From: an uncultured bacterium | Lineage (GTDB): Bacteria; Oederibacteriota; Muellerivitia; Muellerivitales; Muellerivitaceae | Length of the DNA: 64,000 bases | Assembly: GCA_964392085.1 (NCBI GenBank) | Contig: CAYMOV010000004.1 | Location: 16,808 to 80,807 of the forward strand | Direction: 5' to 3' | In this document: one piece after another, positions 12,774 through 59,542 of the stretch | Layout: each line of letters starts with the position of its first letter | How positions within the stretch are numbered: the stretch's first letter is position 1 | The notes under the pieces: model-generated | What the model saw: the letters and a program-made list of their open reading frames with translations, nothing else | Told to the model about the DNA's origin: nothing | The model's database searches: none | Translations under genes and position numbers: made by a program

Positions 12774-12779
12774 GAACGG

Positions 12780-13094
12780 CCAACGATAACTTTTGAACCA
12801 CCAAGATCACCAAGTTCACTAACAGGATGATGAAAAAGTCGAACTGAAGAGACTTTTTCGTGTCTTGCTTGCGAATCACCCCCCCAAAAACCGGGGGATT
12901 CACGTCGATGCGCCCGACCCACGTGGCTGTTGGTAGGGTGTAAAAACACTTTTTCAGCACCCTGCTAAGAATGCCTAATGGATAAAGTCATTAAACCTAA
13001 GGTTTTCCTTTATAACCTCGTTTACGCCCTCAGCCGAAGGCTGACGGGCAGTGGCCTTTGTGGTGAATAGGTTCGCTTTGCGTGGTTTAGTTAG
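12780..13094. repeat. Composite REP/REPIN-like intergenic repeat, copy B, hosting an inverted MITE
   Basis: Arms align with 523-834; includes hairpin gccctcagccgaaggctgacgggc. Confidence 0.75.
12823..12964 (-). mobile_element. MITE copy 2 (142 bp), opposite orientation to copy 1
   Basis: TIRs CAGGATGATGAAAAAG / CTTTTTCAGCACCCTG; CTAA duplications at 12819-12822 and 12965-12968. Confidence 0.85.
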
Positions 13095-13163
13095 GTGAGC
13101 TAAGTTCATTTAAACAATCCGGGCGCCTCGATTTCACCGGCCGACCTTGGGATACTGGGGCAC

Positions 13164-19768: not shown

Positions 19769-19796
19769 GTTTCCCTCCAAACCTGCGCGCCCCGCC

Positions 19797-21437
19797 TCAG
19801 CGGGGCGTTTTTTTATCTGATCGGCGCGGTCTGCCGTGCAACCAGGACCAATTCATGGGATAGACGTCCGGATCGAATAGGACCCAGTAAAAGTGCCAAA
19901 CCGGGATCGCCAGGGACGCCAAGACGGCCTCCCAGAAGTGCACGGACAGGAAGACATCCAAGATCCACTTGGGCATGTTCCCCAGGGACCAGTTCTTGAA
20001 GAAAACAAAGGAGCCCGTCAGGCCCATCACGCCCGTTCCCCAGACCAGGGCCCAATACTCCGCTTTTTCGATATACGTGAAGTGGCGGTGGGGCGGAGGC
20101 GTTTTCCGGCGGCCGAGAACATACATCAAACGTTGTTGCAGGTCACCCAAATCGTGCATCGCGGGAAGGATCGCCTTGAATTGTCGACGGCCCCTGTCGG
20201 TGAAGGCTAGGTAGGCGATGTGGAACAGGCTGGTACCCAGCAAGACCGCGGCGGCCCCCATATGGATGCCGTGGCGCCAGGCCGCGCCGTCGGCGAACCA
20301 GCTGAAAGGGGCGGCCCACCAGGCTTTGGGCCAAGTATGGGCGAAACCCGTGTAAGCCAACGTGACGAATGAACAGGCCAAAAGCGCGTGCTGCATCCTC
20401 TCAACCCGTTCCAACCGGGTCTCCTGGTAGAAGGATTCCGGGTAAAGGCTATGGCCTGGGTGGGTTAGCTTATAGATAAAATCCAACCCGTTGTGGGTCG
20501 CCATGCCCCCGACGGTCAAGAGGATCAGCCAAAAGTACATCCATTTGATGAAGTTGATCGGGGTCTTTTGCTCCGTATCCCGGGGGTTTTCGTGCATCCG
20601 GCCCTGGATCACGCCCGCGCCGGCCCCCGGGTGGCATTTGGAACAGGTCTGGGCCAGGTTGGCCGGGTTGACCGTGGACCTCGGATCCGAGGGCGGCAGG
20701 ATGTTATGCACGCCATGACAGGAGGAACAGTTCGCGGCCTTCAATACACCCGCCTTCAACGCGACGCCGTGGAACCCTCCCTGGTAGGTCTTGGCCACGT
20801 CCGGGTTGATCTTGAATTGTCCCGCGATGGCCACGCTGGCGTGGCATTGGGAACAGGTCTCGGGGATCCGTTGGGCCGAAACCGGCGAGTCGGGGTCGTC
20901 GGGTCCCAGGAACTTATGCTCCCCATGGCACGACGTGCAGACCGGAGCCTCGGCCACCCCGTTGCGCATGGCGGTGCCGTGGACGCTTCCCAGGTAATCC
21001 TTCACCACCTGGGGATGGCACTTGCCGCAGGTTTCCGGCAGTTTGCCCCGGCTGATGGGGGACCGGTCGTCGGAGGGCGGCAAGATCGCGTGGGGCGAAC
21101 CGTGGCACCGGAGGCAGGCCTCGGGCTCCCGAACGTCCTTCCAGAAGCGCCCGTGGTGGCTGGCCCGGAAAGTGTCGGCCATGTCGGCGTGGCAGGTGGC
21201 GCATTGCACCTTCTTCCGGCCGGTCGGGTGGGGGTATTCGGTGATGCCCTCGTGGCAATCGGCGCAGGAGAGCCCCTGGTGGATGGATCGTTGGAACAAT
21301 TTGGGTTGGACGAAAGGCGCGCCCGAGGTCTTGTCCCCATGGCAGGCCAGGCAAGTGTCGTGGTCCGACCCGGCCCGGAGTGGGCTGATCGCGAGGAACA
21401 GCGTGGCGGCCAGGAGGATGCATGCGGTTCGGTTCAT
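19797..21437 (-). CDS. CbcL-like protein: 9-heme periplasmic domain fused to FdnI/HydC-type cytochrome b
   Basis: Signal peptide, 9 CXXCH, then TM helices with RMQHAL, RHGIHMG, SVHFWEA, WHFYW and YTYIEK.EYWALVWG-type motif. ATG 21437 with GGAGG. Confidence 0.8.
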   Translation of the reverse strand: MNRTACILLAATLFLAISPLRAGSDHDTCLACHGDKTSGAPFVQPKLFQRSIHQGLSCADCHEGITEYPHPTGRKKVQCATCHADMADTFRASHHGRFWKDVREPEACLRCHGSPHAILPPSDDRSPISRGKLPETCGKCHPQVVKDYLGSVHGTAMRNGVAEAPVCTSCHGEHKFLGPDDPDSPVSAQRIPETCSQCHASVAIAGQFKINPDVAKTYQGGFHGVALKAGVLKAANCSSCHGVHNILPPSDPRSTVNPANLAQTCSKCHPGAGAGVIQGRMHENPRDTEQKTPINFIKWMYFWLILLTVGGMATHNGLDFIYKLTHPGHSLYPESFYQETRLERVERMQHALLACSFVTLAYTGFAHTWPKAWWAAPFSWFADGAAWRHGIHMGAAAVLLGTSLFHIAYLAFTDRGRRQFKAILPAMHDLGDLQQRLMYVLGRRKTPPPHRHFTYIEKAEYWALVWGTGVMGLTGSFVFFKNWSLGNMPKWILDVFLSVHFWEAVLASLAIPVWHFYWVLFDPDVYPMNWSWLHGRPRRSDKKTPR

Positions 21438-21461
21438 GGGCGGCCTCCCTTTTCCCCCGGG

Positions 21462-21490
21462 ATCTTGACTGGGACCCCATCCCTTGTCAA
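21462..21490 (-). promoter_or_regulatory. Sigma70-type promoter for the cbcL-like/imcH-like pair
   Basis: TTGACA-N17-CAAGAT on the minus strand, just downstream of a terminator. Confidence 0.5.
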
Positions 21491-21510
21491 CGCGTTCATC
21501 GGACCGGCTG

Positions 21511-21554
21511 AAATAAAAGAGGCCGGCCCTGCGCGTGCGGCGCATGACCGGCCC
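21511..21554 (-). terminator. Intrinsic terminator ending mtrAB
   Basis: Minus strand GGCCGG..TGCGC-loop-GCGCA..CCGGCC followed by TCTTTTATTT. Confidence 0.6.
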
Positions 21555-21624
21555 GAGCCCCGAGCGGGGCCTGTGAACCGGGGGAGCCTCCCTGAAAGGA
21601 TCCCCCGGGGTGAGCCTTCCTTTG

Positions 21625-21765
21625 CGGGGTGCGGAAAAAGTGTTTTTGCGCCCCGCCAACAGCCACGTGGTTCGAGCGAATCGCATTAAATCCCCCGGTT
21701 TTGGGGGGATGATCCGCGAGTACGGCATGAAAAAGTCTCTTCAGTCCGACTTTTTCATCATCCTG
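21625..21765 (+). mobile_element. MITE copy 4 (141 bp), inserted at the mtrB stop codon
   Basis: TIRs CGGGGTGCGGAAAAAG / CTTTTTCATCATCCTG; flanks TTTG / TTAG (1 mismatch). Confidence 0.8.
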
Positions 21766-23946
21766 TTAGAACTTCGCCGTCACCTGCGCGCCCGCGATGC
21801 TGGCGATGTAGTTCGAGGGATGGTCGCCGAGGAACACGCCCACCAAGGCGCCGGTGACCGGGTTGGTGATGACCTGGCCCTGGAACTGGTTGGCGAAATC
21901 ATTCACCTTGTAGACTTCCAGGGTGTACGAACCGGCCAACGACCAGGTGTTGTCCAACTTGACGGTCAACTTCGCCGTGTAGTCGTCCTGGAGGGTCGTG
22001 GTGTCGGGCAAGCCGCCCTCGATCACGGTGGCGGTGCTGGCTTGGTCCGTCATGAGCACCCGGCCAAGCGAGGAGGCCCGGGTGTAGCCGAGGTTCGAGG
22101 ACAAGCCCGAGCCCAGGTCGGCGTCCATGCCGATACCGTACACGATGTAATGCTCCTCGGTGCTGGCCTTCCAATAGTGGGCCGTGTCCTGGACACCGGC
22201 GGAATCGGCCTGGAGCGCGTTGTAGAGCTCATGCTCGTACATGGCGTTCAATCCGACCTTTTCGGAAACCTGCCAGTCCCCCGTGACCGAATGCATCACG
22301 TGCTTGTCGTTCAACAGGCCGTACTGCAGGGTGGTGGTCACCGCGCCGCCCACGTCTTGGCCCGTCAAGTCGCCGTTCGGCTGGAAGTCGTCGGTCCCGT
22401 GGGTGAAACGGTAGGAAACGTTCACCGTCTTGATCGGCGACAAACGCAGGTCGCCGCCCAGGTCCTTGCGGATCCGATTGGCCTCGTCGAAGCGGCGGAG
22501 GCCCGGCATGTCACCCGAGGCCAGCCAAGCCGTGGCGTTGTATTGGCTGACTTCCCGCTGGGCTTGGGAACCGGTCAGGGCCACCTTGACCCCTTTCACC
22601 GGGGTGACGTCCACCCCGCCCTTCACCGTGCGTTCGATCGACTTCGCGAACTCGCGGTCGGTGCGGAAGACGTCCTGGTAGATGTAGCCGCCGTTCAACC
22701 CCACGACCTTCAACAGGTCGTAGCGGGCTTCCCCCTCACCGGTGTAGGTCCGGTTCCCGAAGTAAGTGGGATAGGAGTTGCCGCCTGTGGCGCTGCCGCC
22801 CGTGGCGGCCTTGCCGCCGACCGTCACGGCGTTGCTCCGGTTGTCCATCTCATAACCCCGGAAGCGGGCCACCAACTTCAGCTTTTGGATCGGCATCACG
22901 GTAACCTGGTATTGCTGGCTGAAGGTGTCCACCCGCCCGCCGAGGTTGGCGGGATTCGGCACGGCGTTGTAGCCGAAGGTGGCCGCACTGTCGGCCGTAT
23001 AGGGCAAGAACGCCGCGTTTTGGTACCAACGGCCCACGGCCACATTGGCCGTCACCCGGGTCTTGGGGATCTGGTCCAACGACACGAACAATCCGGCTTG
23101 TTGCGCCAGGTTGCTCGGCGGCTGGCTGTAGAGGCCCTGGCTCGGCTTCGAGGAAGTGGGGACGGACCACATCAGGTCGTCGAAATGGATCGAGCTGATG
23201 TTGTCCTCAAAACTTGAGACGTTGCCGTTCAGCCGAACGACGGTCTTCGCGGGCATCCATTCGATGGAAAGCCCCCCGTCCGTCGTGCGTTGGTCGATCG
23301 GCGCGGGCAACTGGTTGATCACGCTGTTTTCGTACACGCTGAGCGGGCGGGTCCCCTGGCGCATCTTGACCTGTCCGTCCACGTTCATCGTCAACTGGGG
23401 CAATACATGGTACGTCACCCGGCCCCCGCCGAGCGTGTCCCGGAACATCACCACCGAGGGCGCCGTAGCGTTCTCGGCGGTCACCAGGTTGTTGAACTGC
23501 TGGGAGGCGTTCCCCACCTGGTTGGCGGCCGCCAAACCCGGAGGCAGGGTCAACACACCCGGCGCGGTCTCGGTATAAAGGGTGTGGGCCTGGTCCCCAT
23601 AGAGGTGCTGGTAGCGCTGGTAGTTGATGTCCACCGACACCTTGTCGGTTTCACCCAACCCCAACCCCACCCCGAGGGACTCGTTGTTCTCGGTCGGGAA
23701 GGCGAAGTCGGCGCGGAGGCGCTTGTCGCCCAGGTCGGCCCCGATCCAGCCGGTGGGGCCCAGCAGGCCCCCCGGCAGGTTGTTGTACTCCTCCAGCTTG
23801 GGGTTGGAGGACGTGGAGTAAACCCCGCCCACGCCCGTGGTGATCTCCCCATCCCAGATGGAGGCCGAAAAGGCTTGGGTCGTCAAGATGAGGGCCGCCG
23901 CGGCCGCCATCAGGCCCATGATCCCGGTTTTCAACGTGGTCTTCAT
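21766..23946 (-). CDS. mtrB: MtrB/PioB/DmsF-family outer-membrane beta-barrel porin
   Basis: Signal peptide, alternating beta-strand pattern, LPAPIDQRT, GLRRFDEANR, C-terminal Phe, directly downstream of a decaheme. ATG 23946 with AAGGAG. Confidence 0.85.
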   Translation of the reverse strand: MKTTLKTGIMGLMAAAAALILTTQAFSASIWDGEITTGVGGVYSTSSNPKLEEYNNLPGGLLGPTGWIGADLGDKRLRADFAFPTENNESLGVGLGLGETDKVSVDINYQRYQHLYGDQAHTLYTETAPGVLTLPPGLAAANQVGNASQQFNNLVTAENATAPSVVMFRDTLGGGRVTYHVLPQLTMNVDGQVKMRQGTRPLSVYENSVINQLPAPIDQRTTDGGLSIEWMPAKTVVRLNGNVSSFEDNISSIHFDDLMWSVPTSSKPSQGLYSQPPSNLAQQAGLFVSLDQIPKTRVTANVAVGRWYQNAAFLPYTADSAATFGYNAVPNPANLGGRVDTFSQQYQVTVMPIQKLKLVARFRGYEMDNRSNAVTVGGKAATGGSATGGNSYPTYFGNRTYTGEGEARYDLLKVVGLNGGYIYQDVFRTDREFAKSIERTVKGGVDVTPVKGVKVALTGSQAQREVSQYNATAWLASGDMPGLRRFDEANRIRKDLGGDLRLSPIKTVNVSYRFTHGTDDFQPNGDLTGQDVGGAVTTTLQYGLLNDKHVMHSVTGDWQVSEKVGLNAMYEHELYNALQADSAGVQDTAHYWKASTEEHYIVYGIGMDADLGSGLSSNLGYTRASSLGRVLMTDQASTATVIEGGLPDTTTLQDDYTAKLTVKLDNTWSLAGSYTLEVYKVNDFANQFQGQVITNPVTGALVGVFLGDHPSNYIASIAGAQVTAKF

Positions 23947-23969
23947 GTAGTTCTCCTTGCTTGTTCCGG

Positions 23970-25007
23970 TCAACGGAAGAAGGTCTGACCGGACGGGTCG
24001 TTGCTGCCGTGGATGTTCGAGTGGCAGTTCGTGCAGCCTTGCACCATCAGCCGGGCCGCGTTCTGCGACAGCTGCGTGTTGCCGATGCCGCCGGACCACT
24101 CCGTGCTCGGGTGGCCGCTGCCGCTGTGGCAGCGCTGGCAGAGCAGGGGTTCCCGCTCGCGCAACAGGTGGTCGTTGTGGCTGCCGTGGGGATCATGGCA
24201 GTTCAGGCAGTTCTCGCGCACCGGGGCGTGCTCCCAGAGGTAGGGGCCGCGCTTGTCCGCGTGGCAGGAGTAGCAGTTCTCATTGACCGAGTCGCCCTTC
24301 AGGTTGTGGTCGATCACCCCGCCGTGCGGGTTGTGGCAGGAGGTGCAGTTGATGTCGCCTTCCCGAACCGGCATGTGGGCGGAACGCTTCATCTGGGCTT
24401 TCTTGTCCGTGTGACAGCCGTAGCAAAGCTCGGGAGGCTCGGCTTTCAGCAGGTGGGCCTTCATGGTCTTCTCGGCCTGGTGGACCTGGTGGCAGTCGAC
24501 GCACTTCACGTCCTTCAGGTCGTGAGGGCTTCCCTTCCAATGGCTCTGCATGCCGCCCCGGTGGCAGGTCAGGCAAGCCGCGTTGGCTTCGGACGCCGGG
24601 AGGTTGGTGAGGTTCTTGATGGTGTGGAACCCGGGGTTGTCCTTGTCGCCGGCGGCGGCGGCATGGAGGCTGCCGGGGCCGTGGCAGGTCTCGCAGGTCC
24701 GTTGGAATTCCACACCCTTGCGGGCGGGCATCAAACGGGCGTGGATGGATTGCTTAAAAATCCCGCCCTGTTCGTCGTGACAACCCAGGCAAGTGTCCGC
24801 CCCGACGTATTCGGCCTTGTCCATCAAGGCCTTGGTTTCTTTCGCGCTCGACGTGTCGGCGGAGGCCGCAACGGGGGTTGGGTCAGCCGTCACCGTCTTT
24901 GTCGCGGTCTCGGCGGCGCTGGCGATCGCCAACCCCCCCAAGAGCGAAATCAAGACGGCTCCGACCGTCCAGCCGAGGCGCTGGATGTCTTTCCGGCTCA
25001 GGGCCAT
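23970..25007 (-). CDS. mtrA: MtrA/DmsE/PioA/MtoA-family decaheme cytochrome c
   Basis: 10 CXXCH, YVGADTCLGCH, KRGPYLWEHAPVRENCLNCHDPHGS, CTNCHSNIHGSNDPSG. Confidence 0.92.
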   Translation of the reverse strand: MALSRKDIQRLGWTVGAVLISLLGGLAIASAAETATKTVTADPTPVAASADTSSAKETKALMDKAEYVGADTCLGCHDEQGGIFKQSIHARLMPARKGVEFQRTCETCHGPGSLHAAAAGDKDNPGFHTIKNLTNLPASEANAACLTCHRGGMQSHWKGSPHDLKDVKCVDCHQVHQAEKTMKAHLLKAEPPELCYGCHTDKKAQMKRSAHMPVREGDINCTSCHNPHGGVIDHNLKGDSVNENCYSCHADKRGPYLWEHAPVRENCLNCHDPHGSHNDHLLREREPLLCQRCHSGSGHPSTEWSGGIGNTQLSQNAARLMVQGCTNCHSNIHGSNDPSGQTFFR

Positions 25008-35576: not shown

Positions 35577-37259
35577 TTACTTTTTCTTAGATGAAACCTT
35601 CACGGGTTTGGCCGCGCCCTTCGGGGCCGCTCCGGCCCTTTGACTGGCCAGGTAGTGCGAAAGGTCCTCGATCTGGGCCGGTGTCAGGTCGCCCTCAAAG
35701 GGTGGCATGGCTGAATCCTTGTTCACCTTGGGCGGATTCGTCACGTAAGTCTGGATCCAAGGCGCGTCCCGGTATTGGCCGATGCTGGAAAGGTCGGGGC
35801 CGATCTCCTCGCCCTTGCCGTGGAGCTTGTGGCAGACCATACAACGCTCCTCGAACAAGGGCGGGGCCTTCGGGGAGTAGGTGCCGCCCCCCAGGGTGCT
35901 CATGTAAGCCACCAGGGACTGGACTTCGTTGTCCAAGAGGTTGAAATTCGGCATCACGGTCCCCTTGGTGACCTGTTGGGGGTTGCGGAAGTGGGCGGTC
36001 AACCATCCCGCGTCCCGCCGGGAACCTACCTCGTCGAGGACCGGGCCGATGTGACCTCCCTTTCCGTCCAAGGTATGGCAATATTGGCACTTCAAGTCGC
36101 CATAGAGCCGTTTTCCCTCCATCACCAGGGGATTCCTCGCCAAAATTGGGTTGGTCAGGGGCGACCGCAGCCCCTGGAACGTCAGGAAACCGATCCCGAG
36201 GATGGCGGCCAGCCCGACCGTCGTCAGGATCGGGCGGTCAAACGGATGGCGACGGAAGCTCCGGTCCAGGAACGGAAGGGCCACCAACGCCGTGACCCCC
36301 AATCCCGGCAGGAGAATCGTGGCGATGGCCTCCAGGGACCCCGGGAAATACTTCAAACCCTGGAAGATGAAAAGGAAGTACCATTCGGGCCGCGGGTTGT
36401 AGGAAGTATCCGTCGGATCAGCCAACCCCTCGAGTTCCGCGCCCTTCCAGAGGGCCAGGCCCGCGATGACCGCCAGAAGAAGGGCGATGGCGAAGGTGTC
36501 CTTGAAAACGACGTAGGGGAAGAAAGACTTGCCCTTCTCCTTCATTTCCAAGTACCGGTGATGGAGCTTTTCCTTCCAGCCGGGCCCCTCAGGATTGAAC
36601 GACTTGATTTTCTCCGGGGGGGCTGAAATGCCGTGCCACACCACCAGGAAAAGGTGGAGTCCCATCAGCCCCAGGATGGTCATCGGCAAAAGGAGCATGT
36701 GGATGGCGTAGAACCGCGTGAGCGTGATGGCTCCCAGTTCGTCGCCGCCCTTGAGGATCTTGCCCACATAGGCCCCGATGATCGGCGTCTGTTCGGAAAT
36801 ATGGGAACCCACCACCGTGGCCCAATAGGCCTTCTGGTCCCACGGCAACAGGTAACCCGTGAACCCCAAACCGATGACCACCAGGAGCAGGCCGACGCCG
36901 GTCAGCCAGGTCGCTTCCCGGGGGTACTTGTAGGCCGCCATGAAATAAACCCGGATCATGTGCAGGACCACCACGACCACCATGGCGCTGGCGCCCCATT
37001 TGTGGAGCCCCCGCAGGAAGGCGCCCATGGGCACCACGTCCATGATGAAGCGGATGGAATCATAGGCGTGGTCCGGCGAGGGCGAGTAATGCATGGCCAA
37101 GAGCATGCCGGTCACGGCCTGCATCAGGAACAGGAAACCCGCCATGCTGCCGAGGGTGTAACGCCAATCCACGCCCTTCGGGATCTTCCGGTCCAGCAGG
37201 GTCTCCTTGACCTTCCGCCAGCCCGTCCGTTCATCCAATTCGTCCAGGAAATTTTTCAT
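35577..37259 (-). CDS. Cytochrome b (b6 + subunit IV type) fused to two c-type heme domains
   Basis: RGLHKWGAS...LHMIR, GYLLPWDQ, RFYAIH-x14-H, PRPEWYF, CQYCH and CMVCH. ATGA overlap with Rieske. Confidence 0.9.
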   Translation of the reverse strand: MKNFLDELDERTGWRKVKETLLDRKIPKGVDWRYTLGSMAGFLFLMQAVTGMLLAMHYSPSPDHAYDSIRFIMDVVPMGAFLRGLHKWGASAMVVVVVLHMIRVYFMAAYKYPREATWLTGVGLLLVVIGLGFTGYLLPWDQKAYWATVVGSHISEQTPIIGAYVGKILKGGDELGAITLTRFYAIHMLLLPMTILGLMGLHLFLVVWHGISAPPEKIKSFNPEGPGWKEKLHHRYLEMKEKGKSFFPYVVFKDTFAIALLLAVIAGLALWKGAELEGLADPTDTSYNPRPEWYFLFIFQGLKYFPGSLEAIATILLPGLGVTALVALPFLDRSFRRHPFDRPILTTVGLAAILGIGFLTFQGLRSPLTNPILARNPLVMEGKRLYGDLKCQYCHTLDGKGGHIGPVLDEVGSRRDAGWLTAHFRNPQQVTKGTVMPNFNLLDNEVQSLVAYMSTLGGGTYSPKAPPLFEERCMVCHKLHGKGEEIGPDLSSIGQYRDAPWIQTYVTNPPKVNKDSAMPPFEGDLTPAQIEDLSHYLASQRAGAAPKGAAKPVKVSSKKK

Positions 37260-37762
37260 GCCTTCTTCCCCTCGGGCAGGATCAGGATGGAGCCATTGGC
37301 GATCTTCGTGGGAAACCGGTCCAAGGGCCGGGGCGGCGGCCCGGACAGGACCTCCCCGGTCTTGCTGAACACCCCGGAATGACAGGGGCACACGAAGGAA
37401 TTCTTCGAGTCGTCCCAACGGTAGGGACAGCCTAAATGGGTGCAATGGGGGTCGAAAGCGGTCAATTGGTCGCCGTCCTTCAGGAGCCAAACTGAGCTCC
37501 GGCCCTCCACCACCATCCAACCGTCGGTCTTGCGCTTCACGTAGTCGCGCTTGGTCGGGACGCCGGAAGGAAGGGACGCCAAGGGGCCGACGTCGATCCA
37601 CCCCTCATCCTTCTTGCGCCAAGCCGGGGACAGGAAATACATCAGCCCACTGCCCCCCAGCACCAACCCCACCAGGGAACCGATCAGGAAGATCCCCCAG
37701 GACAGGAAGCTTCGACGGCTCAACCCCTCACCCTCCGGGTGCTGGTCCTCGTTCATTTTCAT
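37256..37762 (-). CDS. Rieske [2Fe-2S] protein
   Basis: Tat motif SRRSFL, CTHLGC, CPCHSG, GPPPRPL. Confidence 0.92.
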   Translation of the reverse strand: MKMNEDQHPEGEGLSRRSFLSWGIFLIGSLVGLVLGGSGLMYFLSPAWRKKDEGWIDVGPLASLPSGVPTKRDYVKRKTDGWMVVEGRSSVWLLKDGDQLTAFDPHCTHLGCPYRWDDSKNSFVCPCHSGVFSKTGEVLSGPPPRPLDRFPTKIANGSILILPEGKKA

Positions 37763-38541
37763 TGCGCCTTATCCTTTTCCATGGATTTCGCTCGGTTCCG
37801 GACCTCACGGGAATGGACGAACACTTCCTGCGCGAGGCGTTTGACGCGCTTCAGGTCGAAGGTGTGCCATTCGTGTTCGGCCTTATTCAGGCTTTCATGG
37901 CCGGCCGCCAGTTCCTTTTCGAGGTTCCCCACGGGTTTGCCTTGGGCCTTCAGGCTGGCCACGGTCTCGTCGGCGATCTCCAGGAGCTCCTTGGATTGGC
38001 TCATCAACAGCAAGGTATCCTGGGCCCCGGCGGGCTTGTTGTGGCAAAGATTACAGGTCTGGTCCAAATCCTTGGAGGTCAGGATGGTGCCCTTCATCAC
38101 CCCATGACAGGTGGTGCAGGTCGGGCCCTTTCCGGTCCGCTCCAGGCGCTGGTAATGCCTGCTCTGGATAAAAGCGGCTTTTTCGTCGGTGTGGCATTTG
38201 CCGCAGGTTTCCGGCAGGTTTTTGTAATAAACCGGGCTGTCGCTTTTCGTGGACCGCAGGACACCCTGGTGGGCCTTGGAAGGGTCGGTCTCCGTCGGTT
38301 GGCCCCCGTGACAAGCCTCGCAGGTGACGCCTGACTTGCCATGGGGGGATTGCGCCCAATCCGCGAACGAATGGCTCACATATTCGGTTTTCTTGACCTT
38401 ATCGTTCTTGTGGCACTCGACGCACTGGTTCTTCGCCTCATCCGTCTTCGGCTTTTGGGCCTTCGCCGCCGCAAACCGGGGGGCCGGACCGAAGCCGGCC
38501 ATGATCGCCAAAACGAAAATCATCGCAAAACGTTTCAACAC
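37759..38541 (-). CDS. Periplasmic pentaheme cytochrome c with helical C-terminus
   Basis: Signal peptide, CVECH, CEACH, CGKCH, CTTCH, CNLCH. GTG 38541 with AGGAGG 8 nt upstream. Confidence 0.82.
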   Translation of the reverse strand: MLKRFAMIFVLAIMAGFGPAPRFAAAKAQKPKTDEAKNQCVECHKNDKVKKTEYVSHSFADWAQSPHGKSGVTCEACHGGQPTETDPSKAHQGVLRSTKSDSPVYYKNLPETCGKCHTDEKAAFIQSRHYQRLERTGKGPTCTTCHGVMKGTILTSKDLDQTCNLCHNKPAGAQDTLLLMSQSKELLEIADETVASLKAQGKPVGNLEKELAAGHESLNKAEHEWHTFDLKRVKRLAQEVFVHSREVRNRAKSMEKDKAQ

Positions 38542-38687
38542 GTTCCCATCCTCCTGGGCCGGTCCGCCGGAGCCAAAGGCTCCCGGGGCATCCCCACCCC
38601 GTTCGACGGATTCCGCCGCTGATTCCTCCGCCCGTCTTTCCCGGGCGGTCTTGTTCGCCCGCCCGGGTCCGACCGAAAAACAGTTAA

Positions 38688-38830
38688 CAGGGTGCTGAAG
38701 CATTTTTGATTCGCCCTGTCAGCAGCCACGTTGTTCGATCGAATCGTTGTAAATCCCCTGGTTTTCGAGGGGATGACTCGTGAGCAAGATATGAAAAAGT
38801 CTCTTCTAGCTCGACTTTTTCATCATCCTG
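38688..38830 (+). mobile_element. MITE copy 6 (143 bp), at a stop codon
   Basis: TIRs CAGGGTGCTGAAG / CTTTTTCATCATCCTG; TTAA duplications at 38684-38687 and 38831-38834. Confidence 0.8.
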
Positions 38831-45257: not shown

Positions 45258-45391
45258 GGTTCCCTCCTGCTGGTTCAACATTCCACACTTGATCGATGGG
45301 ATTCCCCCGGGACAGGTTGCGGAAGCCTGAATCCAAGGACACCATCGATGGGGGTTCAGCCGACTTTCCCAAAGATCAAAAGCCCCAATTA

Positions 45392-45434
45392 AGGTTAGTC
45401 TGGAGGTGGAAGAAGGCCATATGACGCCAGTCAC
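45392..45434 (-). promoter_or_regulatory. Class II Crp/Fnr-type promoter for the hypothetical-RR-HK-crp2-cNMP operon
   Basis: Box ATGACGCCAGTCAC 45421-45434; -10 TAACCT (45397-45392) at 30.5 bp. Confidence 0.7.
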
Positions 45435-45498
45435 AAAGGGCGTCTTGACAGACAAATCCAAGCAATGGTCGAACCTTCAAATAACCGCATTTTTAAAT

Positions 45499-45532
45499 AA
45501 AAAAGGCCCGCGGCGACCGGAAGCCGCGGGCC
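45499..45532 (-). terminator. Intrinsic terminator closing the structured RNA
   Basis: Minus strand GGCCCGCGGC-loop-GCCGCGGGCC-TTTTTT. Confidence 0.8.
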
Positions 45533-45655
45533 CAAGGCTTATTGTGCGGGCCCTGAAAGAGGGCTAAGCCTCATAAAGATGTGTTCCGAAGGCCGGGATC
45601 TTGATCAAGACCCGACCCTAGGCGGCGAGCTGTAGCACATCCGACTGTTGAGCGG

Positions 45656-45736
45656 CTACGCCGACACACTCAACAGCTTGAAGAGCCGGTCCCGTGGATC
45701 GGTGAAATAGGCCCGCACTGAGTTCAAGAAGCCCAT
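45656..45736 (-). CDS. Possible 26-aa leader peptide MGFLNSVRAYFTDPRDRLFKLLSVSA
   Basis: Open from ATG to TAG; the ATG lies in hairpin GCCCAT-GGG-ATGGGC; weak RBS. Confidence 0.25.
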   Translation of the reverse strand: MGFLNSVRAYFTDPRDRLFKLLSVSA

Positions 45737-45795
45737 CCCATGGGCAAATCTGGCCTTGGAAGGTTGACTTAAAGTTGGCCGTTGATTCGTGAGTA

Positions 45796-45837
45796 ACTAT
45801 ATTCCTGAAGGCATTGCGAGTTTATGACCTGCGTCAC
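45796..45837 (-). promoter_or_regulatory. Class II Crp/Fnr-type promoter for the structured RNA
   Basis: Box ATGACCTGCGTCAC 45824-45837; -10 TATAGT (45801-45796) at 29.5 bp. Confidence 0.7.
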
Positions 45838-45943
45838 CCTTTAATCACGCAAATAACCCAGTAATTACGATCACTTCTAAGGCTGCTGGACTTTAAAGGG
45901 CTTTCCTTTCAAACCATACTCTCATTCCAAATGGCTTGAACTT

Positions 45944-45984
45944 ATGAGCGGGCTCATGGCTTACGATCAACAACTACTTAAAAT
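45944..45984 (+). promoter_or_regulatory. Class II Crp/Fnr-type promoter for the cydA-like operon
   Basis: Box ATGAGCGGGCTCAT 45944-45957; -10 TAAAAT 45979-45984 at 28.5 bp. Confidence 0.65.
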
Positions 45985-46002
45985 GCAGTCCGGAGGCTGC
46001 AC

Positions 46003-47319
46003 ATGAATTATCCGGTTTGGGAGATCCCCCAGTTGGGGGGAGGAATGTTGATCGGTATGGTGGCGATTTTTCACGTGTTCATTTCCCATTTCGCCGTGGG
46101 AGGTGGGTTGTTCCTGGTCCTGACCGAACGCAAAGCCTACCGCGAACGGAACGACGTCCTGTTGGCCTACGTCAAATCCCACTCGAAGTTCTTCGCCCTC
46201 CTCACCCTCGTCTTCGGGGCCCTTTCGGGTGTCGGCATCTGGTTCTCCATCGGCCTGGTGTCCCCCCCGGGCACCAGCGCCTTGATCCACCTGTTCGTCT
46301 GGGGATGGGCCGCCGAATGGGTGTTCTTCCTGGTCGAGATCACCGCCGCCCTCCTTTATTACACCACCTGGGACCGGTTGGACCGACGAACCCACGAGGC
46401 GATCGGCTGGATCTACGCCCTCTCGGCCTGGATGTCCCTGGTCATCATCAACGGTATCCTTTCCTTCATGTTGACCCCGGGGGGCTGGCTGGAGGACGGC
46501 TCCATCCTCTCGGCCTTCTTCAACCCGAGTTACCTCCCCTCCCTGATCATCCGCACCCTGGTCTGCCTCGCCCTGGCGGGGCTCTACGCCATGGGCACCG
46601 CCTCCTTGCTCAAACAACAGGACCTCCGGGAAAACCTCATCCGATATTCCGCCCGGTGGCTGATGCCGGCCTTCCTGTTGCTCCCCTTCGCCGGGGCTTG
46701 GTACGTCGCCTCCATCCCTCCATTGGCCCGGCAGATTTCCATGGGAGGGGCGGCCGCCGTCACCCTCTTCGCGGTGGGAAGCGTCGCCTTCTCGATCCTT
46801 TTGTTTGTTTTCGCCTACCTGCTCGCCTACCGGCACCCCCGGGGCTTCTCCCCGGCCTTGGCCGCTCTTTTCCTAGTCTTGGGGCTCATGACCACCGGGG
46901 TCACCGAATGGGTCCGGGAAGCCGTCCGCAAGCCCTACTTGATCTACGGCTATATGTATTCCAACGGCATGCGCGCGAAGGATCTCCAGGCCATGCCGAC
47001 CGGCGAGAGCCTTTTGGCGGCGTCCAAGTGGTCCCACCTGAAAACGGTGCCGTCGGGCCAGGAACCCGCAGCCGGGCATGAGGTCTTCCGCATCCAATGC
47101 GCGGCCTGCCATACGCTGCGGGGGTATAACGGCATCGCGCTCCTGGTGGACGGTTGGGACGAGGACCTGTTGGCGGACCAAATCCAGCACCTCGACATGC
47201 TCAAGGGATTCATGCCTCCCTTTAAGGGTTCCAACCCGGAGCGGTTGGCCCTCGCGAAATATCTTTTCAACCTCGAAAAGCGATCGCCCGTCTCGACCAC
47301 CCTGGAGGTGAAACCATGA
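46003..47319 (+). CDS. Cytochrome bd subunit I-like protein with C-terminal cytochrome c domain
   Basis: FHVFISHFAVGG, WAAEWVFFLVE, FFNPS, EWVREAVRKPY, CAACH...MPPF. Confidence 0.8.
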   Translation: MNYPVWEIPQLGGGMLIGMVAIFHVFISHFAVGGGLFLVLTERKAYRERNDVLLAYVKSHSKFFALLTLVFGALSGVGIWFSIGLVSPPGTSALIHLFVWGWAAEWVFFLVEITAALLYYTTWDRLDRRTHEAIGWIYALSAWMSLVIINGILSFMLTPGGWLEDGSILSAFFNPSYLPSLIIRTLVCLALAGLYAMGTASLLKQQDLRENLIRYSARWLMPAFLLLPFAGAWYVASIPPLARQISMGGAAAVTLFAVGSVAFSILLFVFAYLLAYRHPRGFSPALAALFLVLGLMTTGVTEWVREAVRKPYLIYGYMYSNGMRAKDLQAMPTGESLLAASKWSHLKTVPSGQEPAAGHEVFRIQCAACHTLRGYNGIALLVDGWDEDLLADQIQHLDMLKGFMPPFKGSNPERLALAKYLFNLEKRSPVSTTLEVKP

Positions 47320-48410
47320 CACCCCTTCCCATCCCGTCCGCCGACCCGTTGGGAATCCCAGGCCCGGTTTGGTTGATGCAGGCCCTTTCCTGCCTTACCC
47401 TCTTTCTCCATTTCTTGGCGGCCCATTTGGCCCTGGGAGGCACGCTCTTGGCCGTCCTGGCCCGGGGGCGGGGCGACGGCGCCGGGGACCGGCTTGCGGC
47501 TTGGCATTTCAGGATCCTGCCGGTGTTCATCGCCGCCGCCGTGACCCTGGCGATCCCGCCCCTGTTGTTCCTCCAGGTCCTGTACGGACCCTTCTTTTAC
47601 TCGGCCAGCGTTCTGACCGCGGCGCCCTGGTTCAGCCTGCTGTTCCTCATGGGGGCCGGTTACCTCCTGGCCTACCTGTTGAACTTCCAATGGGACTCCT
47701 GGAAGGCCCGCGCGGGTTGGGTGGGTGGCGCCATCGTCCTCCTTTTCTCCGGGGTGACCCTGATCCTGACCTCCCTCACGCTCCTGTCCCTGCACCCGGA
47801 TCGCTGGAGCGCCCTCTACGGGGATCCCCACCTGGGTTTGAAGTGGGACGGCGGGTTGCCCACCCTCTTGCCGCGATATCTGCATCTGTGGCTAGCCGCT
47901 CCGGCGGTCGCAGGGGCCTTCTTCGCGCTTGTGGGCCAGGGGTGGATCCGAAAGGGGCTCCGGGAAGGGGATTGGGTGGCTCAATACGGGGCCGCCTGGT
48001 TCCTCTCCGTCACCTTGGTCCAATTTGGGGTCGGGACCTGGTTCCTATTGTCCCATCCCAGGGACATCTGGATGGGGGTGATGGGAGGCGACTTGGCCGC
48101 CACAGGGGCCTTCATGACCGCGATGGGGGCGATCTTGGTTTCCATGGTTCTTTACGGGGTCGGGCTCTTCAAACTCCGGGCCTACGGCTGGACCTGGGCC
48201 GGTTGGATCGGCCTTCTGGTGACCCTGGTCTCCATGACCGCGGTTCGGCTGCACCTGAGGGACCTTGATCTGAAGCCTTACTTGGAGGGGATGTGGATCA
48301 CCCACGACCAATGGGGATTCATCACGATCTTCCTGGCGCTTTTGGTCGCCGGGTTCGGGACAGTGGGTTGGATGCTGGTGAAAGTCTTCGGGAAAAAGCC
48401 GACGGCCTAA
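47316..48410 (+). CDS. Second CydA-like/partner membrane subunit
   Basis: LFLHFLAAHLALGG, IPPLLFLQVLYG, PRYLHLW; ATGA overlap with the previous gene. Confidence 0.65.
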   Translation: MTPLPIPSADPLGIPGPVWLMQALSCLTLFLHFLAAHLALGGTLLAVLARGRGDGAGDRLAAWHFRILPVFIAAAVTLAIPPLLFLQVLYGPFFYSASVLTAAPWFSLLFLMGAGYLLAYLLNFQWDSWKARAGWVGGAIVLLFSGVTLILTSLTLLSLHPDRWSALYGDPHLGLKWDGGLPTLLPRYLHLWLAAPAVAGAFFALVGQGWIRKGLREGDWVAQYGAAWFLSVTLVQFGVGTWFLLSHPRDIWMGVMGGDLAATGAFMTAMGAILVSMVLYGVGLFKLRAYGWTWAGWIGLLVTLVSMTAVRLHLRDLDLKPYLEGMWITHDQWGFITIFLALLVAGFGTVGWMLVKVFGKKPTA

Positions 48411-52134: not shown

Positions 52135-53175
52135 CTAGACTTCCCAGAATTCGTCGGCGCGGGTGCCAAAGAAGCTCTTGTCGTCCCTAAAGCTCTTGAG
52201 CGTCCTCATGTATTGCGCCCGCTCGAACGCCGTGGGGTCCGAACACTTCTCCTGGCTCATGGAACCCTTCATCTGTTCGACGGACTTGTACTCGTGATCC
52301 GTCATCCACTTTGCCATGTCGTTTTCGACGGTCCGAATATGGTCCACGCCGTTCTTGAGGAGGGTGGAGCAAAGCATGGTGACGTCGGCGCCCGCCATGA
52401 TCATCTTGAGGGCGTCCTCCCCCTGGTGGATCCCGCTCGTGGCCGCCAGGGAGGACTTCACCTTGCCCCGGAGGATGGCCACCCAACGGAGTGGAACCCG
52501 AAGCGACATAGGGGTCGACAGGAGGGCCTGGGGCCGGACTTCCTGGTTCTCCAAGTCCATATCGGGTTGGTAGAAGCGGTTGAACAGCACCAACCCGTCC
52601 GCGCCGGCGTCCGAAAGTCGCTTCGCCACATTGGCCATGTTGCTGTAGAAGGGCGACAACTTGATCGCCAAGGGGATTTTCACCGTGGATCGGACCGACT
52701 TGAACAGGTCCAGGGTGTTGGACTCCACCGTGGCGCCCGTCAACTCCACGTCCGTGGGGATGGTGTAGACGTTGAGTTCCAGCGCGTCGGCGCCCGCGTC
52801 CTGGATCTTCTTCGCGAAGGAGGTCCAGCCGCCCCGGGTGGCGCCGTTGAGGCTGGCGATCACCGGGATCTTCACGGCCTTCTTAACGGCCGCCACATGC
52901 TTCAAATAACGCTCCGGACCCACCCCGTAGCTCTCCAGTTCCGGGAAGTAGGACAGGGCCTCCGGGAAGCTGTCGGCCCCCTGGTCCAGCGACTTGTTCA
53001 GCTCGTACTCCTCCATCAGGAGTTGTTCCTCGAACAGCGAGTAAAGCACCACGGCGGACGCGCCGGACTGCTCCATCCGCTTGACGTTCTCCACGTCCAT
53101 CGAAAGGATGGAGGCCGAGGGCACCAACGGCGTCCTCAGTTTCATCCCCATGTATTTCGTGCTTAGGTCCGGCAT
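52135..53175 (-). CDS. Dihydroorotate-dehydrogenase-like flavoprotein (PFOR-associated type)
   Basis: PVIASLNG, ALELNVY (no catalytic Cys/Ser), IKLSPF, VLFNRFYQPD, LRWVAIL, AATSGIH. Confidence 0.85.
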   Translation of the reverse strand: MPDLSTKYMGMKLRTPLVPSASILSMDVENVKRMEQSGASAVVLYSLFEEQLLMEEYELNKSLDQGADSFPEALSYFPELESYGVGPERYLKHVAAVKKAVKIPVIASLNGATRGGWTSFAKKIQDAGADALELNVYTIPTDVELTGATVESNTLDLFKSVRSTVKIPLAIKLSPFYSNMANVAKRLSDAGADGLVLFNRFYQPDMDLENQEVRPQALLSTPMSLRVPLRWVAILRGKVKSSLAATSGIHQGEDALKMIMAGADVTMLCSTLLKNGVDHIRTVENDMAKWMTDHEYKSVEQMKGSMSQEKCSDPTAFERAQYMRTLKSFRDDKSFFGTRADEFWEV

Positions 53176-53277
53176 TTTCGTCCTCCTACCCTCTTTAGGG
53201 TGGGCCAACGCCCACCCACTCTTTCGATGGGTTCAAATCAAGACGGTCCCCGATCCGCCCCCGGTCCTGCCCCACCC

Positions 53278-57194: not shown

Positions 57195-59542
57195 TTCGTC
57201 CCTCCTTCCAGCCGGGCCCGAGCGACCACGGCTTGCCCAAGGGCCAATCCCCCATCGTTGGGTGGGATTTCCCTGGGCCAATAGACTTCCAACCCGGCCG
57301 CCCGGAGGCGGTGGACACAGGAGTCCAACAACACCTTGTTCTGGAAACAACCCCCGCCCAAGAGGACCCTATTTTGGCCCAAGGACTCCGCGGCCTTTAT
57401 GACCCCCTCTACCAAAGACCCATGAAATTTTTGGGCCATTTCCTTGGGCGAAACTTTATTTGCCATGTCAATTATCAGCCCTTCCACAAGGGGACCCCAA
57501 TCCAATTGGCCCATCCCCTCTTTTTCGGTCCACAACATGGGGTAACCCTGCACGTTTGACGGCAGGTCACCCGCCAAAAACTCGAGGTCCATGGCGGCCT
57601 GTCCCTCGAAACGGATCTTTTGCCGGAGGCCCAAAAGGGACGCCACCGCGTCGAACAACCGGCCCATGCTGGAGGTCAGGGGACTGTTGAACCCGCTCTC
57701 CAACATGTTCAGGAGGATTTTTCTCTCTTCCGAGGGAAAGGCAGTCACCGGCCAAAGGTCGGGACGGTTCACCGCGTCGACGCCACCCCAGGCGTGAAGC
57801 AGGCCCAAGGCACTGCGACGGGGTTCCTTGACCGCCGATTCCCCCCCCGGCAACCGGAAGGGTCGCAGGCGGCCCCGCCGGGTCCAGGCACCCCGGGCTC
57901 CCGTGAAGAATTCTCCCCCCCAAACCGTACCATCAGCCCCCCAACCCGTTCCGTCCCAGGCCACCCCTAGGGCCTGTCCCATGACCCCGTTCTCTGCGGC
58001 GCAGGCCGCCACGTGGGCCTCATGGTGTTGGACCGGAACCACCGGCCGACCCAACCCCGCCGCGGCCCGGGTGGATACGTAATCGGGATGGGCGTCGCAG
58101 GCCACGACCTCCGGGTTGGCCCCGAAAAGGGTCGGCAGGTCCCGGATCGCGGATTGGAACGCCTCGGAGGCCCGGGGGGATTCCAAGTCCCCTAAATGGG
58201 GACCCAGGACCAAACGGTTTCCCTGGAGGATCGCCACCGCGTTCTTGAGGTGGGCCCCCACCGCCAAGATCGGAATGGAGGAACCGTTCTCCGGCAGGTA
58301 AACGGACCTGGGCGCGTAACCCCTGGCCCGGCGAAGGACCATGGAGCGCCCCCCCATCACCCGAACGACCGAATCGTCCAACGCTCGGGCGATCGGCCGG
58401 TCGTGGACGAGGAAGACATCCGCCAGGCCCCCCAAGCGTTTCACCGCCTCCTCCTCATCGGTCACCATGGGTTCGTCGGACAAGTTGCCGGAGGTCGCCA
58501 CGATGGGAAACCCCAGTTCCTGGAGCAGGAGCGCGTGGAGCGGGGTGGTCGGTAGGAGGACACCCAGGTTCGGGTTCCCGGGGGCCAACCCCCGGGTCAG
58601 GGAGCTGGGTTCCCTTCCCAGTCCGGCCGCCTGGCGGCGCAGGATGACGATGGGACCCGCCGGTGATCGGAGGATGGACTCCTCCAATTCGGAGGTCTCG
58701 CAATCCTTCCGGATGGATTCGATTGAGGGGAACATCACCGCGAAGGGTTTTTCCTCCCGGTGTTTCCGCAATCGCAGTTTGGCGACCACTTCCGGGTCGC
58801 GGGCGTCGCATAGGAGTTGGAACCCCCCCAAACCCTTGAAAGCCACGATCAAACCGGCGCGCAGGGCCCAGGCCGCCTCCAACAGGGCCCGATGACCGCC
58901 GGCCGTGGGGGTTCCCCGCCCGTTCCAAAGGGCCAGTTGGGGTCCGCATTCGGGGCAGGCGATAGGTTGGGCGTGGAACCGACGGTCCCGGGGATCCTCA
59001 TACTCCGCCCGGCAGGCGTCACACATCGGAAAGGCGGCCATCGTGGTGCGGGCGCGGTCGTAGGGCAATCCCTTCAGGATCGAGAACCGGGGGCCGCAGT
59101 GGGTGCAGTTGGTGAAGGGATAGCGGTAACGACGATCCGAGGGGTCGAAGATTTCCCGGAGGCAATCCGGGCAGACCACCGCGTCCGGAAGGGCCTCCGT
59201 GGTGGAGGGACCCTCCAGGCCGCTGTCGAGGATTTGGAATCCCGTTCCGGCCTTCAGGGGGAGGACTCGGCTGTCGAAGGAACGCAGGGAGGCGAGGGGG
59301 GGCAATTCACAGGGCAGGCGTTGGAGGAACAGGGCGAGGGTATCGGAGGGCCCCTCCACCTCCAAGGTCACCCCCTGGGGGCTGTTCCGGACTGTTCCCG
59401 CGAGGCCTAATTCCGAGGCTAAACGGTGGAGAAAAGGACGGAACCCCACTCCCTGGATGGATCCTTGAAAGAGAATCTCCAGCCTTTGCCGCCCGGCCCC
59501 GACGAGGGGAATGGGGGCCCGGATGATGATTTCATTCTCCAT
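57185..59542 (-). CDS. hypF: Carbamoyltransferase
   Basis: GSIQGVGFRPF, Zn fingers (CPDC, CTHCGPR, CDAC, CPECGP), RARGYAP, QHHEAH, NDGGLALGQ. Confidence 0.96.
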   Translation of the reverse strand: MENEIIIRAPIPLVGAGRQRLEILFQGSIQGVGFRPFLHRLASELGLAGTVRNSPQGVTLEVEGPSDTLALFLQRLPCELPPLASLRSFDSRVLPLKAGTGFQILDSGLEGPSTTEALPDAVVCPDCLREIFDPSDRRYRYPFTNCTHCGPRFSILKGLPYDRARTTMAAFPMCDACRAEYEDPRDRRFHAQPIACPECGPQLALWNGRGTPTAGGHRALLEAAWALRAGLIVAFKGLGGFQLLCDARDPEVVAKLRLRKHREEKPFAVMFPSIESIRKDCETSELEESILRSPAGPIVILRRQAAGLGREPSSLTRGLAPGNPNLGVLLPTTPLHALLLQELGFPIVATSGNLSDEPMVTDEEEAVKRLGGLADVFLVHDRPIARALDDSVVRVMGGRSMVLRRARGYAPRSVYLPENGSSIPILAVGAHLKNAVAILQGNRLVLGPHLGDLESPRASEAFQSAIRDLPTLFGANPEVVACDAHPDYVSTRAAAGLGRPVVPVQHHEAHVAACAAENGVMGQALGVAWDGTGWGADGTVWGGEFFTGARGAWTRRGRLRPFRLPGGESAVKEPRRSALGLLHAWGGVDAVNRPDLWPVTAFPSEERKILLNMLESGFNSPLTSSMGRLFDAVASLLGLRQKIRFEGQAAMDLEFLAGDLPSNVQGYPMLWTEKEGMGQLDWGPLVEGLIIDMANKVSPKEMAQKFHGSLVEGVIKAAESLGQNRVLLGGGCFQNKVLLDSCVHRLRAAGLEVYWPREIPPNDGGLALGQAVVARARLEGGTKCA

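Follow-up and report, generated by a model that had tools for sequence, protein, structure and literature searches.

Genetic setting

The 745-nt spacer at 45258-46002 of the window (the whole 64-kb stretch of DNA from an uncultured bacterium that was analysed) is flanked by a cytochrome bd-like oxidase operon on one side and a sensor-regulator operon on the other, and houses a predicted non-coding RNA of ~295 nt, encoded on the minus strand with its own predicted promoter and terminator. The flanking operons comprise the following genes.

46003-47319, plus strand: cytochrome bd-like subunit I fused to a c-type cytochrome domain
47316-48410, plus strand: membrane partner of the bd-like subunit I
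45257-44736, minus strand: 173-aa protein without a Pfam domain, first gene of the sensor operon
44735-44340, minus strand: response regulator of the sensor operon
44325-42919, minus strand: histidine kinase of the sensor operon
42905-42156, minus strand: Crp/Fnr-family regulator of the sensor operon, 2.4 kb downstream of the RNA element
42106-41597, minus strand: cNMP-binding protein of the sensor operon

Elsewhere the window encodes hypD, hypE, hypF, pyruvate:ferredoxin oxidoreductase, multihaem cytochromes and an MtrB/PioB-type outer-membrane protein. The last of these is found with decahaem-like cytochromes at window positions 18209-24099 (minus strand), and a cytochrome b/c fusion with a multihaem partner at 35577-38703 (minus strand); together, the MtrB/PioB-type protein and the decahaem-like and multihaem cytochromes suggest extracellular electron transfer. 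Exact look-ups of the proteins of the window returned matches to identical DNA only, in a few JGI, ENA and Logan assemblies. A 93-nt tRNA-Pro(CGG) predicted by ARAGORN at window positions 58539-58631 (plus strand) falls within the hypF reading frame, on the opposite strand, and is probably a false positive.

The 173-aa protein is cysteine-rich, has no match in Pfam or NCBIfam, and belongs to a family of 21 representatives at 50% clustering (P0034-P0053), one of which (P0034) is a fusion to a response-regulator/GGDEF protein. A homologue in locus L082 adjoins Crp/Fnr regulators, and genes of this family, inspected at L076, L079, L082 and L083 among other loci, are usually preceded by an FNR-type box; the protein may constitute an uncharacterised signalling domain.

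Promoter boxes and the Crp/Fnr-family regulator

Exact copies of GTGAC-N4-GTCAT number only two in the 64-kb window, both on the minus strand and both within this spacer. The predicted promoter elements are listed below.

45837-45824, minus strand: Crp/Fnr-type box 1, GTGACGCAGGTCAT, centred 41.5 nt upstream of the predicted start at ~45789
45801-45796, minus strand: -10 hexamer TATAGT of the RNA promoter, read from the sequence, with a predicted start at ~45789-45790
45434-45421, minus strand: Crp/Fnr-type box 2, GTGACTGGCGTCAT, between the terminator and the gene for the 173-aa protein
45397-45392, minus strand: -10 hexamer TAACCT of the predicted sensor-operon promoter, 1 nt farther from the box centre than at box 1
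51958-51945, minus strand: third Crp/Fnr-type box, GTGACGCAAATCAT, with one mismatch, in the spacer before hypD-hypE at class II distance
51921-51916, minus strand: -10 hexamer TAGTCT before hypD, with the same spacing as TAACCT

The FNR consensus of E. coli is TTGAT-N4-ATCAA, with the site at most activated promoters centred at approximately -41.5 (PMC3688515), and the spacing of box and -10 hexamer at the RNA promoter matches class II activation of the FNR type. A class II promoter of this kind had been proposed by a sequence-only reading of the locus, and the proposal is strengthened by recurrence of the same box geometry at two other promoters and by its conservation in a related locus, L071. 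There, box 1 reads GTGATGCGGGTCAT, both half-sites being kept and one lying nearer the FNR consensus TGAT; the -10 stretch of the RNA promoter is 100% conserved, compared with only 66% for the spacer upstream of box 1; and box 2 through its -10 hexamer (45392-45434) is identical at 43/43 positions. Box 2 and its -10 hexamer, located 3' of the terminator, would thereby give the sensor operon a predicted promoter of its own. The third box suggests that hydrogenase maturation (hypD-hypE) falls in the same regulon as the RNA and the sensor operon. Boxes before the distant homologues of the 173-aa gene read ATGACCCAGGTCAT in L076, ATGACATCGATCAT in L083 and ATGAGACCCGTCAT in L082.

The Crp/Fnr-family regulator of the locus carries the recognition-helix motif TVETAIR, retaining the E and R that, in the TVETISR motif of FNR, read the TTGA half-site. 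It is devoid of the N-terminal cysteine cluster of oxygen-sensing FNR, so the signal may not be oxygen itself.

Two further sites occupy the same spacer. The palindrome ATGAGCGGGCTCAT (45944-45957, plus strand), whose TGAG-type half-site resembles the L082 box, sits inside a 26-nt block 100% conserved in L071, where the surrounding spacer is 66% identical, and its centre is 28.5 nt from a TAAAAT hexamer (45979-45984, plus strand); the two probably serve the bd-like oxidase operon as operator and promoter. A sigma-70-like site, TTGGCC-17-TATATT (45775-45803, plus strand), overlaps the -10 hexamer of the RNA promoter in reverse and is conceivably a divergent promoter, subject to occlusion by the box at 45824-45837; this site may contribute to conservation of the RNA leader.

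Predicted fold and terminator

The RNA is predicted to fold into a leader, a structured core closed by a long helix, and an intrinsic terminator, with the following parts.

45789-45719, minus strand: 5' leader of ~70 nt, with a GGCC/GGCC hairpin (21-nt loop containing CCUUCC) and a GCCC/GGGC hairpin
45718-45544, minus strand: structured core, from the minimum-free-energy (MFE) and centroid folds and the two-sequence consensus fold with L071
45718-45709 with 45553-45544, minus strand: P1, 10 bp, GUGCGGGCCU / GGGCCCGCAC, closing 175 nt
45702-45686, minus strand: hairpin P2, MFE fold
45677-45644, minus strand: hairpin P3, MFE fold
45643-45623, minus strand: hairpin P4, MFE fold
45622-45586, minus strand: hairpin P5, MFE fold
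45572-45559, minus strand: hairpin P6, MFE fold
45533-45495, minus strand: intrinsic terminator GGGCCCGCGGC-UUCCGGUC-GCCGCGGGCC(U), then UUUUUAUUU (hairpin 45533-45504 plus U-run), from the terminator scan
45533-45523, minus strand: 5' arm of the terminator, a near direct repeat of the P1 3' strand, able to form 9 pairs with the P1 5' strand

Every sequence feature listed in the sequence-only reading was found at its minus-strand coordinates. Three of its hairpins, CCGAUCC/GGACCGG (with one A.C mismatch), CUGUUGAGUG/CGCUCAACAG and GGUCGGGUCUU/AAGAUCCCGGCC, are present in the MFE fold; the fourth, GAUGUG/CACAUC, is complementary as described, yet is unused in the minus-strand MFE fold and has one pair broken in L071. 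The terminator combines a stem of 11 bp, 10 of them G-C pairs, with a loop of 8 nt and UUUUUUAUUU, and was returned by the terminator scan in the minus-strand orientation only. Its stem is 100% conserved in L071, the sole change being an A>G substitution in the tail at 45498. With no minus-strand gene upstream, the terminator must serve a transcript starting within the spacer.

Folding of 45730-45495 yields an MFE of -103.7 kcal/mol, against -81.0 +/- 4.7 for 200 dinucleotide shuffles (z -4.8), none of which equals it. Across 424 windows of 236 nt covering both strands of the 64 kb (20 shuffles each; background mean z -0.64, sd 1.41), that containing the RNA is the most extreme (z ~-7), and a control flank, the 251 nt just downstream, folds no better than its shuffles (z +0.5). 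These values, with the terminator scan, uphold the stable branched fold and terminator initially described.

Other structured stretches were also detected. The AT-rich 390-nt spacer before mutY (12774-13163, plus strand) forms a chain of long hairpins (411 nt folded, -153.5 kcal/mol, z -6.0) with no Rfam match, and may represent either a group of palindromic elements or a further structured RNA. Where the pyruvate:ferredoxin oxidoreductase gene adjoins the dihydroorotate-dehydrogenase-like gene (52995-53230), both strands are unusually structured (z ~-5), and covariance model R1 gives a weak hairpin match at 53194-53221. In L076, a 317-nt stretch upstream of the FNR-type box of the 173-aa homologue (3584-3900, plus strand; z -5.1) holds several C4-5/G4-5 hairpins and has no similarity to the RNA under study.

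Comparison with known RNA families

No Rfam 15 family reached its gathering score anywhere in the window, and at E <= 10 the 6S, FnrS and riboswitch models were all absent from 45350-46000 (651 nt). The best sub-threshold match, to mmgR/suhB (RF00519; 22.5 bits against a gathering score of 41, E = 0.029, 45490-45571), comprises the GCCCU...AGGGC hairpin, the linker and the terminator, which is a generic 3' part that includes none of the core; the remaining matches scored lower still, all at the level of chance. The description of the element as unrecognised consequently holds with respect to Rfam, but its attribution to anaerobiosis is not supported, given a regulator without the cysteine cluster of FNR.

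A 6S-like size combined with a branched fold had been pointed out, and the Rfam comparison agrees in giving no match to 6S or another family. 6S RNA belongs to a similar size class, but is a rod with a central bubble, in contrast to the branched fold here, and its usual genomic context is absent; with no covariance match to RF00013 or related models, and with MFE, centroid and consensus folds that are all multi-branched, it was rejected as an identification.

FnrS of Enterobacteria (RF01796) provides a closer likeness in arrangement: both are stand-alone RNA genes in spacers, ended by an intrinsic terminator, among respiratory or redox genes, and both have a Crp/Fnr-family site at class II distance, centred at -42.5 at fnrS (PMC3688515) and near -41.5 of the predicted start here. 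The two RNAs nevertheless have no sequence or covariance-model similarity, and their boxes differ (TTGAT-N4-ATCAA for FnrS, TGAC-N4-GTCA here), as does the regulator, which at this locus is without the cysteine cluster of FNR. FnrS, of ~120 nt, consists of simple hairpins, in contrast to the ~295 nt and six-helix junction predicted here. AniS of Neisseria and PcrZ of Rhodobacter sphaeroides, sRNAs in the FNR and FnrL regulons respectively, share the same wiring of a Crp/Fnr-family factor to a terminator-ended RNA, but are unrelated in sequence, much shorter, and act by a short seed. The RNA would thus be a functional analogue of FnrS, AniS and PcrZ, unrelated to them and much larger.

Conservation in a related lineage

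Locus L071 was reached through the 90% cluster of the response regulator, the second member of which lies on a contig carrying the whole locus, 84% identical to the window over 7.1 kb. The homologue collection proposed at the outset has thus yielded one related lineage, and the RNA is known from two closely related lineages in a few environmental samples. Identity with L071 varies across the locus as follows.

Third codon positions of six genes: 67-83%
Spacer from box 1 to the bd-like gene (165 nt): 66%
Box 1 to the start site: 85%
RNA leader, 45789-45719: 65/71 (91.5%)
P1 through terminator: 210/215 (97.7%)
Terminator to box 2: 88%
5' UTR of the sensor operon: 86%

The stretch from P1 to the terminator is the best-conserved 215 nt in the 7.1-kb alignment, and five or fewer differences over this length would have a probability of ~4e-17 at the third-position rate. 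The disparity between 97.7% in the core and 67-83% at third positions or 66% in the adjoining spacer indicates strong purifying selection on the element. Over the 296-nt RNA, 12 columns are changed, of which 11 are unpaired in the consensus fold and the twelfth is a G.U to A-U change in P5, although this fold was fitted to both sequences, which tilts the count towards structure. The two sequences, with five differences in the core, contain no compensatory double changes, and the stems and loops of the core are almost equally conserved.

Beyond L071, none of 58 GTDB-genome loci examined for synteny of the bd-like oxidase carries the RNA (nhmmer) or the sensor operon; the gene upstream differs in the closest bd-like relative, from a Ca. 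Methylomirabilis MAG (73% over a 128-aa fragment). Metagenome scanning with the 173-aa protein returned no match, and with the kinase six loci, of which the sole close one (L065) ends inside the kinase gene. The distant homologues of the 173-aa protein (28-38% identity, 21 representatives) have, at the loci inspected, the box and short spacers, and no match to the RNA was found near them by nhmmer or covariance model. A second copy of the RNA was absent from the 64-kb window (blastn, model R1), and comparison with plasmids gave no match, occurrence as a single copy in the window and the lack of plasmid matches leading to rejection of a mobile palindromic repeat of the REP/MITE type. From its distribution, the RNA has the appearance of a lineage-specific addition that carries a box copy of its own.

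A possible cis-acting leader of the sensor operon

The RNA is directly upstream of the sensor operon and co-oriented with it, and may, as a tentative alternative of lower probability, be a riboswitch or protein-dependent attenuator for which the P1-closed junction is the sensor domain. Ligand or protein binding would then select between P1 plus terminator and an antiterminator, setting read-through into the genes for the 173-aa protein, response regulator, kinase and Crp/Fnr regulator. An arrangement of four elements, A, A', B and B', speaks for such a switch, A' being a direct repeat of B: the 3' strand of P1 (GGGCCCGCAC) and the 5' arm of the terminator (GGGCCCGCGGC) form a local direct repeat, and GGGCCCGC, under-represented in the window (6 occurrences against 13.8 expected), nonetheless occurs here in two copies 20 nt apart. 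The two folds are mutually exclusive and of comparable stability at the decision point of 268 nt, as the 5' arm of the terminator emerges and the transcript reaches 45523, where the antiterminator fold (-100.4 kcal/mol) is the MFE and the P1 form stands at -99.9 kcal/mol. The antiterminator conformer nests the GCCCU-CUUUC-AGGGC hairpin, with GAGGCUUA/UAAGCCUU forming around GCCCU/AGGGC. The sequence-only reading had anticipated both this pairing of the 5' strand with the terminator arm and a competing hairpin, and the predicted folds bear it out. At full length, the terminator form (-120.1) is favoured over this antiterminator (-108.9) and over a GGGCCC:GGGCCC antiterminator (-110.0), such that in these models a terminator/antiterminator switch is physically plausible, with termination as the default.

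Resemblance to large riboswitches of the lysine and cobalamin type extends to a P1 closing a multi-helix junction of ~175 nt, aptamer-like near-invariance of the core including loops and junctions, and a downstream terminator with a 5' arm that can pair with a P1 strand. Differences from these riboswitches are, however, substantial: no riboswitch in Rfam gives a covariance match, the genomic context suggests no ligand, and P1, at 10 bp, is unusually long, G+C-rich and stable without ligand, the full-length terminator form being ahead by ~11 kcal/mol. The terminator is, moreover, ~240 nt upstream of the open reading frame, its T-run ending 237 nt before the start codon of the 173-aa protein, and the predicted promoter at 45392-45434, with its fully conserved box and -10 hexamer, intervenes, so the operon would not need read-through. 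The distantly related 173-aa genes likewise have the box and are without the leader, and the element would not be the sole route of transcription into this gene. A new class of riboswitch with the P1-closed six-helix core as its sensor domain, or a new protein-binding regulatory RNA, gating the signalling operon is doubtful; if true, the core would read a redox or second-messenger signal and would form, with the two-component system and Crp/Fnr regulators, an RNA-plus-transcription-factor feed-forward loop.

Strand and coding potential

Conservation does not by itself tell the strand or the molecule, and the element could instead act on the plus strand, as a structured segment within a long 5' UTR belonging to the bd-like operon, or as protein-binding DNA between the divergent operons, an explanation considered improbable. 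The plus strand folds equally well (-105.7, z -6.0; -76.6 kcal/mol for both strands in the strand comparison), and a T>C change at 45579 keeps GAUGUG/CACAUC only on the plus strand, as U.G. G.U pairs had been expected to give no clear verdict on strand, which their count of nine on the minus and seven on the plus strand, at equal energy, confirms. The two informative substitutions do not separate the strands either. The G+C-rich hairpin on the plus strand, however, lacks a U-run and lies at the far 5' end with no promoter-like site upstream of it, and the conserved palindrome at 45944-45957 with its TAAAAT hexamer would supply a proximal bd-like promoter downstream of the element. Four considerations favour the minus strand: how the terminator and promoter are oriented, its larger number of G.U pairs, the predicted promoter belonging to the bd-like operon, and the poor conservation (66%) of the 165 nt separating box 1 from the bd-like gene.

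Translation of a small protein from the 26-codon or another short open reading frame, or attenuation by a leader peptide in which the ribosome position on the 5' strand of P1 would control termination, is very improbable: the 26-codon open reading frame (45736-45656) exists, covers this strand and has its ATG inside a hairpin, as noted previously, and elements 1-4 are like those of a classical attenuator, but the ATG has no Shine-Dalgarno sequence and is TAG in L071 (an AU>UA change at 45736-45735), a 1-nt deletion at 45657 there removes the stop codon and shifts the frame of an overlapping 32-codon open reading frame, and elements 1 and 2 are separated by 155 nt of hairpins. A frame-breaking indel in the most conserved segment speaks against a constraint on protein, and leader-peptide attenuation was rejected.

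A proposed separate RNA gene under Crp/Fnr-type control

The preferred reading, assigned a probability of roughly 0.5, is that the element is a separate, lineage-restricted gene for a non-coding RNA of ~295 nt, activated by a Crp/Fnr-type regulator and acting in trans. It is favoured over a cis-acting leader because the conserved box 2 and its -10 hexamer give the sensor operon a predicted promoter of its own after the terminator, because the stretch from the terminator to box 2 is less conserved, and because the distant 173-aa homologues have the box and no RNA. The near-equal energy of the antiterminator at the decision point, as modelled, suits a cis-acting switch equally and counts against a separate gene. 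A previously undescribed RNA gene under Crp/Fnr-type control is nonetheless credible.

In this separate-gene model, which predicts the transcript with both ends as well as its activator, the signal and an action in trans, a Crp/Fnr-family activator, probably that of the neighbouring operon, would bind the GTGAC-N4-GTCAT box at -41.5 and recruit RNA polymerase to the TATAGT hexamer by class II activation. Transcription would start near 45789 and stop at the strong intrinsic terminator at 45533-45495, and the RNA would fold into a 70-nt leader and a core in which the 10-bp G+C-rich helix closes a junction of five hairpins. The RNA would then act in trans within the regulon of the sensor operon and probably of hypDE, the favoured mode being base pairing with mRNAs through exposed pyrimidine-rich, anti-Shine-Dalgarno-like sequences, CCUUCC in the leader loop and CCCUCUUUC near the 3' end. 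Neither the duplex energies nor the longest complementary words at the window's 41 translation-initiation regions surpassed those of shuffled RNA, and a size of ~300 nt with uniform conservation of stems and loops is atypical for base-pairing sRNAs and counts against pairing in trans. Binding of a protein or small ligand by the RNA is a serious alternative to this mode, since stems and loops are almost equally conserved.

Significance

The practical value of the finding is modest, the element having been seen in two closely related lineages so far. Its size, branched fold and near-invariance set the RNA apart from ordinary base-pairing sRNAs and make it a candidate ligand- or protein-binding RNA. 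If transcribed as predicted, it would represent a new RNA family without relatives in Rfam 15, situated in the Crp/Fnr-type regulon of an uncultured bacterium, a group of organisms for which regulatory RNAs are essentially unknown.
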